DNA from: Promethearchaeia archaeon
GTDB lineage: Archaea; Asgardarchaeota; Lokiarchaeia; Sigyniarchaeales; SOKP01
Length of the DNA stretch: 20,000 bases
Direction: 5' to 3'
Assembly (NCBI GenBank): GCA_029856045.1
Contig: JAHQWG010000050.1
Location: 6,938-26,937, forward strand
The notes under the pieces are model-generated. The model was given only the letters and a program-made list of their open reading frames with translations, did not search any database and was not told where the DNA came from. Below are positions 5,145-14,850 of the stretch, piece after piece (the first letter of the stretch is position 1; each line of letters starts with the position of its first letter). Both the position numbers and the translations under genes were made by a program.

Positions 5145-5504
5145 CTATAAGGGAATGTTATTGATATCAAGTATCTCAGGCACTTTTCTATTGCGCTCGA
5201 GCCAAGCAATCTCATTAGCTCTATACCGCCAAAATATTTCACATTTTCCCAATTTTCCGGCCGTTTGAGTTTCCCAGTCCCAACTTGAAATTAATACTAA
5301 ATCCCCCTGACGCATCCACACCCTTTTTTTAATTTTACCACGAACACGACCAATTCGATAAACTTTATCCTCACAAAATACGCGCATTCTTTCATTTCCG
5401 AGGATTTCAACAACTCTGCCAAACATTTCCCCGTTTCTTCGATTTGGGAATTTAATTCTAAATGATTGTGCTTGTTGGGCTTCTTTATGTTTTTTCTTTG
5501 TCAA
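5145..5504 (-). CDS. eif1A: Translation initiation factor aIF1A (eIF1A family, S1/OB fold)
   Basis: 119 aa. GEMFGRVVEILGNERMRVFCEDKVYRIGRVRGKIKKRVWMRQGDLVLIS is typical of a/eIF1A. Confidence 0.93.
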   Translation of the reverse strand: MTKKKHKEAQQAQSFRIKFPNRRNGEMFGRVVEILGNERMRVFCEDKVYRIGRVRGKIKKRVWMRQGDLVLISSWDWETQTAGKLGKCEIFWRYRANEIAWLERNRKVPEILDINNIPL

Positions 5505-5607
5505 ATCTTTTAACCAAATCTAATGTTATATTTCTTTAATTATAATTAAGTTTAAATTTTTTTCTGTTAAGATTTTTAAAAAGTTCTTAAATAAAATTAA
5601 ATAAAAA

Positions 5608-7311: not shown

Positions 7312-7764
7312 CTAATCGAATCGATCAGAAACAATTTTCTTTTTTTGTCTTAGATATATAACACTTATTCCCAATTTCATTGCCCTTGACCGAAGTCTAG
7401 AATCATTTGTTGCCAAATGAACTTTAAAATTATTATTTAATAATTTTTGACATGCTTTAATTAAAAAATCATCTACGGTTTCTCCAGTTATCCTTTCTAT
7501 TGGGATCTCACAGAATTTATGAGATCTTAAAATTTTTAAGCCTAATTCTAACTGTTTCTGATATTTGACTTTTTTACTTTCTCTTATTTTTTTCCAGTTC
7601 AATTCATCTAAAGTGGATTTAAAAACGATATAAGCCAATTTCCCCGGGATGATATCTCTAATTTCTTCAAAATAATCAATCCCAAACTGAGATGGAATTA
7701 AAATAAAATTCGCATCCAAAATGATAAGCTGATGATCTTTTAAGTCATTAAAATAAGATAACAT
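7312..7764 (-). CDS. PIN-domain protein (archaeal VapC9/Fcf1-like)
   Basis: 150 aa. LIILDANFILIP, LDEL, VDDFLIKACQ, LATNDSRLRSRAMKLGISVIYLRQKK, with conserved acidic residues and the TND motif. Confidence 0.82.
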   Translation of the reverse strand: MLSYFNDLKDHQLIILDANFILIPSQFGIDYFEEIRDIIPGKLAYIVFKSTLDELNWKKIRESKKVKYQKQLELGLKILRSHKFCEIPIERITGETVDDFLIKACQKLLNNNFKVHLATNDSRLRSRAMKLGISVIYLRQKKKIVSDRFD

Positions 7765-8274
7765 TTATATTTGAATACCCTGGCGTTCTAATATTTCTTG
7801 AGTTAAACGTTTAAAGGATTCTTCAACATTTTCACCAGTTTTTGAAGATATCTTGAGATAATCAAATAAATTTAAATCTTCGATATATGATAAAGCAAAG
7901 TCATCATTCACATTTATATCTTCTATTAAATCAATTTTAGTCCCAAGAAATAAAACAGGTAAGTTAGGGTCGTTTTGGCGCACAATTTGAATCCATTGAT
8001 CAAGTTTTTCCAATGTTGCAATTCTTGTAAGATCAAACATTAGTAATGCTCCTTTAGCCCCTAAAACATAACTTCCAAGTAAAAACCTAAAACGTTCTTG
8101 CCCACCAAAATCCCAGAGTTGAAGTGTAATCTCATTGTCTCCTAAAATAATAGATTTCAGGAAAAATTCCACACCTATGGTCATTTTAGTTTCACTAAAA
8201 AATTGTCCTTCAACAAAACGACGTAATAATGTAGTTTTACCAACACCTCCCTCCCCTGCTGTAAGGATTTTCAT
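7765..8274 (-). CDS. Small GTPase of the Ras superfamily (Rab/Rho-like)
   Basis: 169 aa. G1 GEGGVGKTT, G3 WDFGGQERF, G4 GTKIDL, G5 SSKTGENVEE. No C-terminal Cys prenylation motif. Confidence 0.93.
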   Translation of the reverse strand: MKILTAGEGGVGKTTLLRRFVEGQFFSETKMTIGVEFFLKSIILGDNEITLQLWDFGGQERFRFLLGSYVLGAKGALLMFDLTRIATLEKLDQWIQIVRQNDPNLPVLFLGTKIDLIEDINVNDDFALSYIEDLNLFDYLKISSKTGENVEESFKRLTQEILERQGIQI

Positions 8275-8514: not shown

Positions 8515-9138
8515 TTAATATGTATCCTTATCTCTATACTCTTTTACAGAGATTTCTCTTTCTGGTAGCCGATTAAATTTTTTAAGAGTATTCAAAATAC
8601 ATTTGACTTCAGATTTTGTTTGTAGATCATATTTTTTCATACCCTCGAGGATTTCCTTCTCACCAAATCCTTTTTTATAAAGTTCATTAAACTTATTTAC
8701 TGATTCTTCGTGAAAATAAATATATCTATTATCCAAATATACAATTAGATATGGTTTTTTGCGTTGTTTTTGAGATAATTTAAATAACTCTTCTCTAATT
8801 TTTCTCAAGGGTTTTTTCATTTTATTAGCAATTGTATCCTCTTCAATCATATAATATTCCATCATTTTTGCTTTAAAAGATCTCTTGAAGAAGAGATTAG
8901 GAAGATATGACAACAAATATAAAATTATTGCAATACCCACTAACCAAATTGCTAGTATTGGTTCTATAAAAAAAACAAATATCACGGCTATTAAAAAAAT
9001 TAGAAACCAGTTACGCCCAACACGTTTGAAAAATACAATAATTTTATTAGGCATCGATATTTTAAGATTATTTTCAAAACTATTTAAATTTTCTAAAAGT
9101 AAATCAATTAAATTAAGAGTTTTAAGTAAAATGATCAT
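8515..9138 (-). CDS. Predicted membrane protein with cytosolic charged tail
   Basis: 207 aa. Hydrophobic stretch NWFLIFLIAVIFVFFIEPILAIWLVGIAIILYLLSYLPNLFF (1-2 TM segments), then a hydrophilic Lys/Glu-rich tail. Confidence 0.6.
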   Translation of the reverse strand: MIILLKTLNLIDLLLENLNSFENNLKISMPNKIIVFFKRVGRNWFLIFLIAVIFVFFIEPILAIWLVGIAIILYLLSYLPNLFFKRSFKAKMMEYYMIEEDTIANKMKKPLRKIREELFKLSQKQRKKPYLIVYLDNRYIYFHEESVNKFNELYKKGFGEKEILEGMKKYDLQTKSEVKCILNTLKKFNRLPEREISVKEYRDKDTY

Positions 9139-9205
9139 AATAAATGTAGGAATATTTCAATTAGATTGATAATAGTGAGTAAAGAGTAAAATTAAAATAA
9201 AAGTG

Positions 9206-9222
9206 TTTATTATAAATTTATA
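9206..9222 (+). promoter_or_regulatory. Candidate TATA-like element upstream of the permuted 5S rRNA
   Basis: tttattataaatttata. AT-rich context makes this weak. Its spacing would place initiation near 9240, inside the proposed terminal stem, so it may not be the real promoter. Confidence 0.2.
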
Positions 9223-9384
9223 GCATTTCACACTAAACTGGAAGTTAAACAACAAACCGTTACAGGTAAGTACTGATATTGCGATTATCGGGAAACTGTA
9301 AACTGTTAATTCGTTAACGGTCATAGGATGTTGGAAAAACCTGATCCCTTTCCGAACTCAGAAATTTAGTGCGATTTGCATTCT
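9223..9384 (+). rRNA. Circularly permuted 5S rRNA (candidate)
   Basis: The 3' half comes first: GAAGUUAAACAACAAACCGUUACAGGUAAGUACUGAUAUUGCGAUUAUCGGGAAACUGUAAACUGUUAA (9241-9309). A UUCG loop follows (9310-9313). The 5' half comes last: UUAACGGUCAUAGGAUGUUGGAAAAACCUGAUCCCUUUCCGAACUCAG (9314-9361). Helices I, II, III, IV and V all form. A terminal stem 9223-9237/9365-9379 joins the new ends. Confidence 0.88.
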
Positions 9385-9385
9385 A

Positions 9386-9393
9386 TTTTTTTT
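9386..9393 (+). terminator. T8 tract, candidate archaeal terminator of the 5S RNA
   Basis: TTTTTTTT immediately 3' of the terminal stem. Oligo-T tracts terminate archaeal RNAP. Confidence 0.5.
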
Positions 9394-9455: not shown

Positions 9456-10706
9456 TTATGGAAAGATTCCCCGTAATTCAATTGCTTTTGCAACTCTTGA
9501 GACAGCAATCATATATGCCGCTATTCTATAAGACACATTTTCTTCTTTAACCAGTTTATATACAGATTCAAATGCATTAAGAATAATTTTCTTTAGTTCT
9601 TTATTAACTCGATCTAAATCCCAATAATATGCATTTATATCCTGTACGTATTCAAAATAAGAAACGATTACGCCTCCACCGTTAGCTAGAATATCGGGAA
9701 TAATAACAGTACCCTTTTTATTAAGAATTTCATCTGCTTTTGGTGTTGTAGGTCCGTTTGCGCCCTCTAAAATAATTTGACAATTAAGATCATTTGCATT
9801 ATACTCAGTTATTTGATTTTCTGTTGCTGCAGGAATTAAAATATCACATTTGATTTTAAAAAATTCTTCATTAGGAATGATCTTAATAGAATCATCTTTA
9901 AAATCAGTAATAAGATTTCCTCTTCTTTGCCATTCTATTAATTCATCTATATTTAAACCTTTCTCAGAATAAATTGTACCATAATACTCTGAAATTGCTA
10001 TTATTTTTGTTCCATATTCATACAGCCTTTTACCAATAATAGAACCAACTTTTCCAAAACCTTGAATTATTGCAGACATAGATTTTAAATCAAGACCTTC
10101 TTTTTCACAAAATTTCTCTATCACAAAAAAAATGCCAGTTCCCGTTGCTTCACTTCTACCTGGGGATCCTCCAATTTCCAAGGGTTTTCCAGTCACAACG
10201 CCAGGCATTGTAGCTCCATGTTGCATTGAATATGTATCCATCATCCAAGCCATAGTTTGAGCATTAGTACCTACATCTGGAGCAGGAATATCTTTATCTG
10301 GTCCAATAATATTGATGATTTCTGCAGTATATCTCCTTGTAAGTCGTTCAAGTTCTCTTTGTGATAACTTTTTAGGATCAGCACAAACTCCACCTTTAGA
10401 GCCACCTAAAGGGAGATTGTGTAGAGCGCATTTCCAAGTCATCCAAGTAGCTAATGCTTTAACCTCATCTAAAGTAACATTAGGGTTAAAACGCACTCCA
10501 CCTTTTCCAGGACCTCGAATAGTTGAATGGTGAACACGATATCCTTCGAAAATTCTAAGACTACCATCATCCATAATAATGGGTATTGAAACAATTAACG
10601 ATCTTTCTACTCTTTTAAGAAAACTGTGCGTATCTGAATTTAAATTCATTTTTTCAGCTACGAGTGCCAACTGTTGTTTTGCCATTTCAAAAGGATTAAC
10701 TTCCAT
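9456..10706 (-). CDS. gdhA: Glutamate dehydrogenase, copy 1
   Basis: 416 aa. [87 protein letters not shown]. Confidence 0.96.
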   Translation of the reverse strand: [416 protein letters not shown]

Positions 10707-10804: not shown

Positions 10805-12058
10805 TTATGGAAAAATTCCCCTTAATTGTAAGGCTTTTGCAACTCTTGAAACTGCAATCATATAAGATGCAGTTCGAAGGGTTTCTTTCTTTTCTTTAGC
10901 AACGCTACAAACATTTTCAAACGTATCTAAGATAATCTTCTTTAGTTCTTTATTAACTCGATCTAAATCCCAATAATAAGCATTTATATCTTGAACGTAT
11001 TCAAAATAAGAAACGATTACGCCTCCACCGTTAGCTAAGATATCAGGAATAATAATAGTACCCTTTTTATTAAGAATTTCATCTGCTTTTGGTGTTGTCG
11101 GTCCGTTTGCGCCCTCTAAAATGATTTTACAATCGATATCATTTGCATTATGCTTAGTAATTTGATTTTCCGTTGCAGCAGGTATCAAGAGATCGCATTT
11201 AATTTTGAATAGTTCTTCATTGGTAATTGATTTTATAGAATTTCCTTTAAAATCCTTAAGGAATTTTCCTTTATCTCTCCATTCTATTAACTGATCTACA
11301 TCAAGGGCCTTCTCAGAATATACTCCCCCCGCTAATTCAGTAATTGCAATAATCTTACATCCATATTCATATAACTTTTTGGCAATAACCGAACCCACTT
11401 TGCCAAATCCTTGAATAACCACAGTCATTGATTTTAAATTAAGGCCAAACTTTTCGCAATATCTTTCAATTACAAAAAAAAGTCCAGTTCCTGCTGCTTC
11501 AGTTCGTCCAGGGGAACCCCCTATTTCTATTGGTTTTCCTGTAACAACTCCAGGGATTGTTTTCCCATGCTGCATTGAATATGTATCCATTATGTATGCC
11601 ATAATTTGAGCATCTGTACCAATATCTGGTGCTGGAATATCTATATTAGGTCCTATCATATTAATTATTTCTGCAGTATACCTTCTAGTAATCCATTCTA
11701 ATTCTCTTTTTGATACATTTTTAGGATAAACACAAACGCCTCCTTTTGAGCCTCCAAATGGGAGTCTATGAAGGCTTGTTTTCCAAGTCATTAACATAGC
11801 TAAAGCTTTAATTTCATCAAGTGTCACCAATTGGCTATATCGTATACCACCTTTACAAGGACCAAGAACAGAGGAATGTTGAACTCGAAATCCTTCAAAT
11901 ATTGTTAGGTTTCCATCATCCATGATGACAGGAATTGAAACAATAACTGAGCGTTCTACGTTTTTGAGAAATTTTTCAATATTTGGAGGTAAATCTATTT
12001 TTTTTGCAATAATCTCAAGTTGTTTTTTTGCTATTTCATAAGGGTTAATTTCCCACAT
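10805..12058 (-). CDS. gdhA: Glutamate dehydrogenase, copy 2 (tandem paralogue)
   Basis: 417 aa, colinear with copy 1. [78 protein letters not shown]. Confidence 0.95.
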   Translation of the reverse strand: [417 protein letters not shown]

Positions 12059-12714: not shown

Positions 12715-14850
12715 TTAAGATCTTATATATTTCTTTTTGTAATTTTGCCAATTATTAAAAAGAATTATTATACCTAAGGCAAGTAATCCAAGCAATCCAA
12801 AATTAATTGAGATTAAAACATAATATAAAATAGGTGGCAGGATCTCAATTTGGAAATTATTTATGTTATAGAGAAAAATTGAATTATTTGCATAATCAAA
12901 TCCAATAATGGCATATTGATATTCCATAAAATCTAATTTATTTAATGTATAGGAATGTAGATCATCTGTGCTACTTTCTTTTTCCAAAGGAAAATAATTA
13001 TATGAAGAAAAATTATCATTTGAAATCAGAAAGAAAATATTTTCTATACCGGATTCATTATCGGATGCGTTAATTGAAAAGCAGATATTATCAGAAACAG
13101 ATGGTTTTTCAGGATTCATATGGAGATTCTCTAAAATGGGAGGATTATTATCCAGTAGGGTTGTAAATGAACCGTTAATTGGTTTGATATTGTGTCCGGT
13201 AATTGTATAATTATATGTGTCGATACCCAAAGGGAGGATTATATTTACGTGTCCGTTTATATCTGAATAGAAAGTTCGATATTTCCCTCCACTACTTACA
13301 AAATTAATCCTAATATTTGAGAGAGCGTTATCATTAATATCTGTTATATACATTGAAAAATGCTGCCCTTCATAAATGTCTCCAGAGAATGGATCTTTAG
13401 GTGTTTTTGGGATATTTGTATAAATATCTACTTCAGGATCTCCCAATAGACAATAAGTTAAGACGTTTTTTCTTTCCCATTCGAGCGAGATATTTATATT
13501 AGAATACTGAAACCAATCACTGTTTAGATATTCAACTTTAGAATCGTAAAGTGCTTTTCCAGGTTGATAACTTTTATTAATAAAGAACGCTTCCCAAAAT
13601 AATTTGCAATTGCCGCGATTCAACATTTCTAAGTCTAGATCTTGTTCAAAATACCAAGTAGCTCTTAATGCTCCAATATATCCTATCGCTCCAGCATCTT
13701 GTCTTTTAATTAAAATTTCACCGATATTATTATCTCCATAGTCATAACTGGAAGTGGTGCATGCATCAGCATAAAATAATGTGGGCATATTAGTATTTGA
13801 GGAACTTCCTGCATTACTGCTGCTGTAAATTATATCTCCAGATCTACTAATAAATCTATTGGGAGCTCCATGACCCGCAAAAATACCCAATGAATGTCCA
13901 TCATTAAAATTATTTCGAAATGTTAAACTTGGATCTGTAATATTATCAAAATCTGGATTTTGTTCAAAGCTTGAAGTAGTTTGGATCAAATGCACATAAT
14001 CCATTGAATCTAGAACATAATTTGATAGAATATAACTTGTAAGTCTCGCCTCATCTTCACCAATCCCAGATTCTGTTTGATAAGGATAATCAGAAATTAC
14101 ACCTGCAAGTAAAAATGAGTTCATCCAATCTCCTATTTGAGGATTTGTTTCGTATTTAAGAGTTTTATTCACCATAATTTCTAACTCCTCATCATCTGAA
14201 GCGGGTAAGCGTCCAACATAAATTTCAGGAGTCCAATCGATTTCATCAACTCCATTATCATTATATACTGATGATTCGCCCCATCTCCCGTCTCCGTCAT
14301 CATCCCAGGTTCCGTCTAAATCAGCATAATAAAAATCTGTTGGTTTAGAATAATCATCTCCAACCGTTTCGCACTCACCTAACGGGAGTACATCATTATT
14401 ATATACAAATCTTATGGGAATTAAGTCTGTATCTCCTGCTAACAACACCCATTGAATTTCTTCAGAATTATAATAACTTTTAATCATGTTTCTAATCTTT
14501 TCTTGTGTATCTACACCGGAATAACTTGAATAATTTGTTAAAATCAGTGTTTTCACGCCTTTTTGATTTTTCCATTCAGCTAAGGGAGTTAAAATATTAG
14601 TGAAATTAGGTTTATCAGGAGGAGCAATAATTAGCATTTCAATTTTTGGATTGAACCATTCTTCTAAATCTTGAGTAAGATTTGCTCTTGGGAGTAATGA
14701 AAGGTCAATATCTAACTCATTATTTGCAGATAATGAAAATCCTTGTTGATAATATGAGCTTGAAGTTAAGAATAGAGAAAAAATTATACAATAATGAAGT
14801 AAAAATATAATCAAATACCTTGAATATTTTAATTTGTTGGTTGACTGCAT
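12715..14850 (-). CDS. C25 (gingipain-like) cysteine peptidase, membrane-anchored surface protein
   Basis: 711 aa. Signal-like N-terminus. MLIIAPPDKPNFTNILTPLAEWKNQKGVKTLIL, AGDTDLIP, GIFAGHGAPNRF (His) and PTLFYADACTTSSYDYG (Cys). C-terminal TM helix plus KKKYIRS. Confidence 0.85.
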   Translation of the reverse strand: MQSTNKLKYSRYLIIFLLHYCIIFSLFLTSSSYYQQGFSLSANNELDIDLSLLPRANLTQDLEEWFNPKIEMLIIAPPDKPNFTNILTPLAEWKNQKGVKTLILTNYSSYSGVDTQEKIRNMIKSYYNSEEIQWVLLAGDTDLIPIRFVYNNDVLPLGECETVGDDYSKPTDFYYADLDGTWDDDGDGRWGESSVYNDNGVDEIDWTPEIYVGRLPASDDEELEIMVNKTLKYETNPQIGDWMNSFLLAGVISDYPYQTESGIGEDEARLTSYILSNYVLDSMDYVHLIQTTSSFEQNPDFDNITDPSLTFRNNFNDGHSLGIFAGHGAPNRFISRSGDIIYSSSNAGSSSNTNMPTLFYADACTTSSYDYGDNNIGEILIKRQDAGAIGYIGALRATWYFEQDLDLEMLNRGNCKLFWEAFFINKSYQPGKALYDSKVEYLNSDWFQYSNINISLEWERKNVLTYCLLGDPEVDIYTNIPKTPKDPFSGDIYEGQHFSMYITDINDNALSNIRINFVSSGGKYRTFYSDINGHVNIILPLGIDTYNYTITGHNIKPINGSFTTLLDNNPPILENLHMNPEKPSVSDNICFSINASDNESGIENIFFLISNDNFSSYNYFPLEKESSTDDLHSYTLNKLDFMEYQYAIIGFDYANNSIFLYNINNFQIEILPPILYYVLISINFGLLGLLALGIIILFNNWQNYKKKYIRS

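Follow-up and report, generated by a model that had tools for sequence, protein, structure and literature searches.

The window analysed here comprises 20,000 nt of contig JAHQWG010000050.1 from a Promethearchaeia archaeon (assembly GCA_029856045.1), and all positions refer to this stretch. Its genes include archaeal housekeeping genes, namely those for aIF2-gamma, aIF1A and an Spt5-NGN protein, and further genes for two glutamate dehydrogenases, a Ras-like GTPase, a PIN_9 protein and a C25 peptidase. Dehydrogenase homologues carry the names Promethearchaeota, Hodarchaeota and Hermodarchaeota, in agreement with an assignment of the window to Asgard archaea. On the plus strand the window harbours the two halves of a 5S rRNA, the 3' half (9244-9309) being located upstream of the 5' half (9314-9363). 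The dehydrogenases are tandem paralogues of 416 and 417 amino acids (9456-10706 and 10805-12058, minus strand) directly downstream of the 5S rRNA, and the pair is kept in the related loci L002-L007. The 5S rRNA is also adjoined by a 207-amino-acid predicted membrane protein without a Pfam match (8515-9138, minus strand). A similar N-terminus (MP.K..VFFK...) is found in the longest open reading frames of the divergent Loki-type 5S loci L139 and L146, which suggests conserved synteny of this protein with the 5S gene. At 7312-8274 (minus strand) a Ras/Arf-like small GTPase (169 amino acids) abuts the PIN_9 protein (150 amino acids) at 7764/7765 with no gap, an arrangement kept in L001-L006. A Peptidase_C25-family protein of about 710 amino acids with hydrophobic segments at the N- and C-terminus (12715-14850, minus strand) is found again, a few kb or less from the permuted 5S, in the divergent Promethearchaeia-type loci L054, L098, L131, L141 and L162.

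The following features were assigned at the 5S locus; BHB stands for bulge-helix-bulge and MFE for the minimum free energy fold.

9192..9199 (+): candidate archaeal TATA box TTAAAATA; the paired part of the leader begins about 25-30 nt further downstream
9223..9237 (+): leader, 5' strand of the processing stem, pairing with 9365-9379 in the unconstrained MFE; it holds the outer BHB helix CACUAAA (9231-9237) and, upstream of it, the imperfect extension GCAUUUCA (9223-9230)
9238..9241 (+): 5' strand CUGG of the central BHB helix, mimicking the 5' strand of helix III (MFE)
9242..9244 (+): 5' bulge AAG; predicted cut after A9243, with G9244 as the first excised nucleotide
9244..9363 (+): predicted excised 5S rRNA, 120 nt, permuted (de-permuted fold, canonical alignment, profile, covariance model)
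9250..9258 (+): helix II 3' strand, pairing with 9326-9333; five of six core pairs altered on both sides
9260..9301 (+): gamma domain (covariation, invariant columns)
9260-9265 / 9296-9301 (+): helix IV, 92.6% paired, with compensatory changes
9273-9278 / 9286-9291 (+): helix V with loop D, 96.9% paired, with compensatory changes
within the gamma domain 9260..9301 (+): loop E, AGUACU invariant (alignment columns)
9302..9309 (+): helix I 3' strand ACUGUUAA (sequence, canonical alignment, covariation)
9310..9313 (+): UUCG tetraloop linking what are the 3' and 5' ends of an ordinary 5S rRNA (sequence, family loop statistics)
9314..9321 (+): helix I 5' strand UUAACGGU (sequence, canonical alignment, covariation)
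within 9322..9357 (+): loop A (CAUA), helix II 5' strand (9326-9333) and loop B (Rfam 5S_rRNA alignment)
9341-9344 and 9345-9357 (+): helix III 5' strand CUGA and loop C (Rfam 5S_rRNA alignment)
9358..9361 (+): UCAG, the 3' strand common to mature helix III and the central BHB helix of the precursor
9362..9364 (+): 3' bulge AAA, unpaired in the MFE; predicted cut after A9363
9365..9379 (+): trailer, 3' strand of the processing stem, UUUAGUG (9365-9371) followed by the extension CGAUUUGC
9386..9393 (+): run of eight T, probable transcription terminator (read from sequence)

The putative promoter was placed according to the general spacing of archaeal TATA boxes, and oligo-T tracts terminate archaeal transcription.

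From 9244 to 9363 the elements of the 5S rRNA follow each other in the order loop B/helix II 3' strand, gamma domain, helix I 3' strand, UUCG, helix I 5' strand, loop A, helix II 5' strand and helix III/loop C. Joining 9314-9363 to 9244-9309 yields an RNA of 116 nt, which folds as a textbook three-way junction and aligns end to end with the canonical 5S rRNA genes of four other archaea. This alignment contains 37 consensus pairs, 19 of which show compensatory changes. The 5S motifs are intact (CAUA in loop A, CCGAAC in loop C, GAAGUUAA, AGUAC in loop E, and GGGAA), as seen where Rfam aligns the 5' half and in the columns that are invariant among the homologues. The free 5' and 3' ends that close helix I in an ordinary 5S rRNA are absent at the gene level, and the UUCG closure is kept across the family.

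Rfam does not recognize this gene at its curated threshold. The Rfam 5S_rRNA model (RF00001) matches no more than the 5' half, at 9313-9378, with 26.5 bits against a gathering threshold of 38 bits, and the rest of this match is badly aligned and uninformative. At the gathering threshold, neither the window nor any of 14 other permuted loci gives an Rfam 5S rRNA hit, and the tRNA and Rfam scans of the window gave no matches at curated thresholds. The low score of the window is due to the permuted order and not to divergence. When the window and its closest relative were left out of the profile of the family, this profile gave a single hit in the window, at 9232-9367, with E = 4e-26. Furthermore, a covariance model of the family (R1) scores the permuted units at 101-139 bits (the window at 134.5 bits) and canonical 5S loci at no more than 32 bits; the gap to the canonical genes is the informative part of this comparison, because the high scorers were in the training alignment of the model. 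A canonical 5S gene was found neither in the window nor in about 123 kb of related loci.

Helix I and its cap form a hairpin at 9302-9321, A CUGUUAA UUCG UUAACGG U. As the sequence-only reading had described, it has eight base pairs with a single U-G wobble (A9302-U9321, C-G, U9304-G9319 as the wobble, G-C, U-A, U-A, A-U and A9309-U9314) and a UUCG loop. The same reading had placed it where an ordinary 5S rRNA has its ends, and the hairpin indeed joins the 3' and 5' strands of helix I exactly. Hairpins of this size are frequent in the AT-rich window, the base composition of which is 27-35% GC. Counting both strands, 37 hairpins with eight base pairs and a 4-nt loop are present as compared to 28 +/- 5.5 in first-order Markov simulations, and 16% of the simulated windows contain at least one such hairpin with a UNCG cap. 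Thus, the hairpin by itself is within chance expectation, and its significance lies in its position and in the comparison with homologues. The window holds just one other 8-bp UNCG hairpin, with a UACG loop at about 11007 on the minus strand inside the second glutamate dehydrogenase open reading frame, which is consistent with chance.

Homologues were collected by pattern scans of genomes and metagenomes. The first pattern used on genomes (GGGAA..CATAG..CCGAACNCRGAA) is loose and matches mostly ordinary bacterial 5S rRNAs; among the matches listed, 4 of 119 loci are truly permuted, and 76 are bacterial 5S rRNAs with the canonical 3' half downstream, where the upstream GGGAA is taken to be 23S 3'-end or spacer sequence. 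The permuted units among these matches belong to Jordarchaeia (L009), to metagenome-assembled genomes (MAGs) of Promethearchaeia or Promethearchaeota (L054, L098) and to an archaeon (L093). The non-Asgard archaea among the same matches have the canonical order. With a tighter pattern, which required the 3'-half motifs upstream of loop C, 86 metagenome loci were obtained. Pooling these with the loci collected before gave 63 distinct sequences, comprising 57 true permuted 5S units and six chance matches that were judged by eye to be unrelated, apparently protein-coding sequence. Both scans together thus provide about 55-57 distinct permuted units among the matches listed. Neighbouring proteins assign further units to Baldrarchaeia, to Hodarchaeota or the 'Asgard group', and to Wukongarchaeota. 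A thermophile-like clade is tentatively assigned to Njordarchaeia, its best named relative having 59% identity. The permuted gene is also present on syntenic contigs; in L007, the most distant one, the cap is UCCG, and helix III as well as the flanks show compensatory changes.

Two observations concern individual loci. The 5S units of L143 and L151 are nearly identical and their leaders are identical; the proteins next to one group with Hodarchaeota/'Asgard group' records and those next to the other with Wukongarchaeota, and this conflict indicates that MAG taxon labels are inconsistent in this clade. In L151, an Rfam tRNA call at 5418-5517 (minus strand) spans 100 nt as compared to the 71 positions of the model, and ARAGORN calls no tRNA; this is probably an intron-containing or otherwise non-canonical tRNA gene.

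Covariation was evaluated on an alignment of 43 distinct permuted units. The 5S structure is paired to 84% as compared to 63.5% in shuffles, and its covariation score is 0.566 versus 0.173. None of 500 shuffles reached this score, and it collapses once the partner columns are displaced. Compensatory changes are present in helices I, II, IV and V, which are paired to 77-97%; the figures for helix III are not meaningful in this alignment, because MAFFT moved the row of the window by one column. Helix I is paired to 96.5%, and six of its eight pairs are altered on both sides, as exemplified by the stem variants UGUUAA/UUAACG, UGUAGC/GCUACG, UGUAAG/CUUACG and UGUAGA/UCUACG. The expectation that homologous loci would show a conserved loop location together with compensatory changes in the stem is therefore borne out by the alignment.

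The cap itself is similarly constrained. Loops were computed with RNAfold, and six mis-parsed units were settled by eye. The cap has a length of 4 nt in 55 of the 57 distinct units and of 5 nt in the other two. UNCG loops close 43 units (UUCG in 38, UACG in 3, UCCG in 2), and further 4-nt caps are UUUG (4), CUCG (3), UUAG (2) and CACG (1). GNRA caps occur twice (GCAA and GUAA, one unit each), both on stems that are 4-6 bp longer and belong to the thermophile-like clade. In the thermophile-like units L148, L156, L168, L174, L177 and L188, helix I extends about 4-6 bp beyond the canonical length and is capped by UUCG, GCAA, GUAA or UUUAU. The excised length is 129-134 nt in these units, and their rRNA is GC-rich in contigs of about 37-41% GC. 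Such a small 5S expansion is possible only because helix I is closed.

The sequence-only reading had claimed a functional permuted RNA as opposed to a shuffled fragment, and this claim is supported, since the de-permuted RNA is a complete canonical 5S rRNA and the stem covaries. We conclude that 9223-9379 (+) is almost certainly a functional permuted 5S gene. It is best explained as the 5S rRNA gene of an Asgard archaeon, present in a single copy and circularly permuted. The permutation was presumably created by tandem duplication.

The sequences flanking the permuted RNA are structured as well. UUUAGUG (9365-9371) is the exact complement of CACUAAA (9231-9237), and in the unconstrained fold of 9215-9385 a 7-bp outer helix is followed by a 3-nt bulge and a 4-bp helix, the outer stem reaching 9223/9379. 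In the 4-bp helix CUGG (9238-9241) pairs with UCAG (9358-9361) through C-G, U-A, G-C and G-U pairs. Two 3-nt bulges on opposite strands, each located 3' of the 4-bp helix, are thereby created, which is the geometry of an archaeal BHB substrate. BHB cleavage by the tRNA-splicing endonuclease EndA falls after the second bulge nucleotide. In silico, the cuts predicted for the window on this basis (after 9243 and after 9363) set free a fragment of exactly 120 nt, and ligation of the ends gives ...CCGAACUCAGAA|GUUAAACAAC..., which is canonical 5S sequence, with the junction CAGAA|GUUAAAC. Cleavage after the first bulge nucleotide instead would give an identical ligation product.

These flanks are conserved among the homologues. 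In the 54 distinct units with full flanks, the central helix is paired at all four positions in 42 units and at three in 10, the fourth pair being G.A or A.A in 10 units. The units L009 and L161 have a perfect central helix one nucleotide out of register, which leaves the ligation product unchanged. The 5' bulge reads AAG in 51 units and the 3' bulge AAN in all 54. The ligation junction obtained in silico is canonical throughout (C.GAA|G(U/C)(U/A/C)AA in 54 of 54 units). For most units the predicted fragment measures 119-123 nt. The outer helix has a mean of 5.6 contiguous pairs as compared to 1.7 +/- 0.2 for leaders and trailers of mismatched loci (maximum 2.4 in 2000 permutations). In the alignment of 43 homologues, all eight of its pairs are altered on both sides. 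The central helix is paired to 91.9% across the family, with CG, UA and UG variants, and the covariation score of the BHB is 0.562 versus 0.183; with displaced partner columns it does not exceed 0.183. The bulges coincide in part with conserved positions of 5S rRNA, namely at two A's of the 3' bulge and at the G of the 5' bulge, and their conservation is therefore partly non-independent evidence.

The motif deviates from a strict hBHBh' in that the inner helix is absent. The 5' bulge lies opposite a loop of about 20 nt, consisting of the helix III 5' strand and loop C, and this half of the motif is thus bulge-helix-loop-like and relaxed. Moreover, the central helix and helix III compete for one strand. 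Without constraints, 11 of 54 units fold with the central helix; when it is imposed, the median penalty is 2.7 kcal/mol, and 0.0 for the window. [quoted passage not shown] This enzyme type is relevant here because one half of the 5S BHB motif is relaxed, and it is plausible that the relaxed motif fits such an enzyme.

We also considered whether the leader 4-mer with the following AA is a mere remnant of a tandem duplication. This was rejected as the sole cause, since the non-palindromic leader 4-mers (CUGG/UCAG, CUGG/CCAG and CGUG/CACG) are complementary, not identical, to the 3' strand of helix III.

The flanks vary in architecture. Most Loki-type loci (e.g. L128-L130, L007 and L054) have a short outer helix ACG/CGU, followed by a leader hairpin (e.g. 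GUAGCGAUUAGCUAC) and a distal long-range helix between leader and trailer (e.g. UUAACCACA / UGUGGUUAA or CUGCAUAAAUC / GAUUUAUGCAG). This three-part processing stem recalls the stems of 16S and 23S rRNA; in the clade of the window it has been replaced by one continuous imperfect stem. The unit L176 (Ga0315277_10035819) has a normal core and a UUCG cap and no detectable outer helix beside the bulges; it may rely on another register or be processed by another route.

Taken together, a maturation pathway can be proposed that is modelled on these sequences. The transcript would contain, in this order, the leader, the 3' two-thirds of the 5S rRNA, the UUCG-closed helix I, the 5' third and the trailer. 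Leader and trailer would pair into the BHB. The central helix of this motif would borrow the 3' strand of helix III, with the leader 4-mer standing in for the 5' strand. EndA would then cut both 3-nt bulges, after 9243 and after 9363. EndA products carry 2',3'-cyclic phosphate and 5'-OH ends, which are substrates of RtcB, and in the archaea studied excised BHB fragments become circular. The RNA ligase RtcB would accordingly be suited to join these ends of the 120-nt fragment, recreating ...CCGAACUCAGAA|GUUAAAC..., and the freed 3' strand would form the true helix III, its foot pairs 9339-9340 with 9244-9245 spanning the new junction. The product would be a covalently closed circular 5S rRNA with helix I still capped by the tetraloop. 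Excision that depends on the predicted BHB is very probable, and once excised the fragment would quite probably be ligated into a circle. That the circle is also the mature form of the 5S rRNA appears somewhat more probable than the opposite, with cleavage, ligation and circularity all deduced from sequence. We infer the persistence of the circle in ribosomes from the same data as EndA cleavage and ligation, and likewise the promoter and the terminator. The strong constraint on the cap, with its length of 4 and its UNCG or GNRA type, argues for retention of this loop in the functional RNA and against its being a discarded linker.

Other readings of the locus have to be weighed against this pathway. 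The sequence-only reading had assumed a permuted RNA with a capped helix I and new free ends elsewhere. Its first part stands, the permuted order and the capped helix I being established; the assumed free ends are less likely, since the flanks form a conserved and covarying BHB. A linear permuted 5S rRNA would be released by EndA or other nucleases and remain unligated, with its ends at the boundary of loop B and helix III. Linear permuted 5S rRNAs do exist in brown-algal mitochondria (PMC4267664), and a nick in loop B might be tolerated. However, the outer helix, the bulges and the central helix of the flanks have the geometry of an EndA substrate, ligation restores the canonical sequence with no nucleotide gained or lost in 54 of 54 units, and the foot pairs of helix III (9339-9340/9244-9245) cross the junction. 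A permuted SRP RNA provides a precedent for circularization (PMC4731332), and the ends expected from EndA are compatible with RtcB. We therefore regard a linear product as unlikely; the BHB in the flanks together with the canonical junction makes a circular RNA more likely than a linear permuted molecule.

Alternatively, the circle could be an intermediate that is re-opened at or near the helix I cap to give a conventional linear 5S rRNA. The transcripts of permuted tRNA genes and archaeal pre-rRNAs do circularize and re-linearize (PMC10085705, PMC7758197), and the outcome would be an ordinary 5S rRNA. Against this speaks that the linker is held to a stable 4-nt tetraloop, which is unexpected for a discarded spacer, and that helix I has only its canonical length of about 8 bp in most units, leaving no extra stem to trim. 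In addition, we know of no enzyme that opens such a loop in 5S rRNA. Re-opening thus seems distinctly improbable. If the locus were a 5S pseudogene, rearranged or in decay, and the hairpin between its fragments a product of chance, this would agree with the abundance of such hairpins in an AT-rich window and with the Rfam score below threshold. Yet Asgard lineages that differ at class level share the arrangement, every helix shows compensatory changes, none of the universally conserved 5S motifs is disrupted, and a canonical 5S was found neither in the window nor in the related loci examined. By these comparative data the pseudogene reading is effectively refuted.

A permuted gene that gives rise to a circular 5S rRNA would have several consequences. 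5S rRNA is regarded as essentially constant and easily found in archaeal genomes (PMC4267664, PMC7594248), and the authors of closed Heimdallarchaeum genomes could not predict 5S genes (PMC8813620). Permutation, if true for these lineages, would account for closed Asgard genomes without a predictable 5S gene (PMC8813620), and also for Asgard MAGs that fail the MIMAG 'high-quality' criterion, in which a 5S gene is required; a permuted covariance model such as R1 would be a simple remedy. BHB-dependent circularization would be extended from 16S and 23S rRNA and SRP RNA to a third rRNA, against current statements, and all three Asgard rRNAs would mature via one BHB pathway. The product would be the first naturally circular 5S rRNA. 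Whether the ribosomal 5S rRNA of Asgard archaea is a circle made by EndA and ligase from a permuted gene, and whether this state is ancestral to a large part of the group, is in our estimate an evenly balanced question. Since Asgard archaea are the archaeal group closest to eukaryotes, such an ancestry would raise the question how 5S maturation changed towards eukaryotes; the eukaryotic lineage would either have reverted to a linear 5S rRNA or have branched off before the permutation. Full-text searches of a collection that lacks most subscription journals gave no account of an archaeal 5S rRNA that is permuted or circular. A list of natural circular permutations of RNA from 2023 names for 5S just the brown-algal mitochondrial case (PMC10085705).

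The permuted mitochondrial 5S rRNAs (mtPerm-5S) of brown algae and other stramenopiles (Valach et al. 2014, PMC4267664) share with the Asgard RNA the closed helix I, and both were missed by standard models. In mtPerm-5S, however, the ends are located where the alpha and gamma domains meet at the three-way junction, the order beta-gamma is kept, and the RNA is linear and lacks a BHB (PMC4267664). The Asgard permutation is encoded on an archaeal chromosome, with the break in the beta domain (loop B/helix III) and the order gamma-alpha-beta. In a permissive Rfam scan of the window (E up to 10), the mtPerm-5S model gave no match and RF00001 alone was returned.

A stem of leader and trailer with a BHB is also found at archaeal 16S and 23S rRNAs, where EndA and a ligase make circular rRNAs (PMC7758197, PMC12918454). 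For 23S rRNA the circle was argued to persist in ribosomes, and circular or permuted mature forms have been described (PMC7758197, PMC12918454). Those genes are colinear and their natural ends are joined, whereas here the gene is permuted and an internal site would be joined. A paper from 2026 states circularization for archaeal 16S and 23S 'but not 5S rRNAs' (PMC12918454), based on lineages with an ordinary 5S rRNA. The permuted tRNA genes of Cyanidioschyzon merolae, as far as the work of Soma (2007, 2014) is summarized in PMC10085705, likewise have the 3' half upstream, BHB flanks and a circular intermediate. According to the same summary, that circle is re-opened by RNase P and tRNase Z and the linker removed (PMC10085705). 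In contrast, helix I of the 5S rRNA runs on into its linker, a stable tetraloop that is conserved.

Closest to the Asgard 5S rRNA comes the permuted SRP RNA of Thermoproteus tenax, for which EndA cleavage, the circle and protein binding were shown experimentally (Plagens et al. 2015, eLife, PMC4731332). In both cases the 3' part is encoded first; flanks that form a BHB and a ligation that restores the functional region are known for the SRP RNA and predicted for the 5S rRNA. The mature SRP RNA is a functional circle, and its canonical gene had been reported as 'missing' from the genomes (PMC4731332). The two cases differ in that the SRP RNA permutation is limited to some Thermoproteus species and the 5S permutation concerns a ribosomal RNA in several Asgard classes, for which the pathway is deduced from sequence and in which one half of the BHB is relaxed and reuses a strand of helix III. 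A circular 5S rRNA, analogous to this SRP RNA, is the most likely product of the permuted gene, and we propose that the mechanism known from Thermoproteus SRP RNA is applied here to a universal ribosomal RNA in several Asgard classes.
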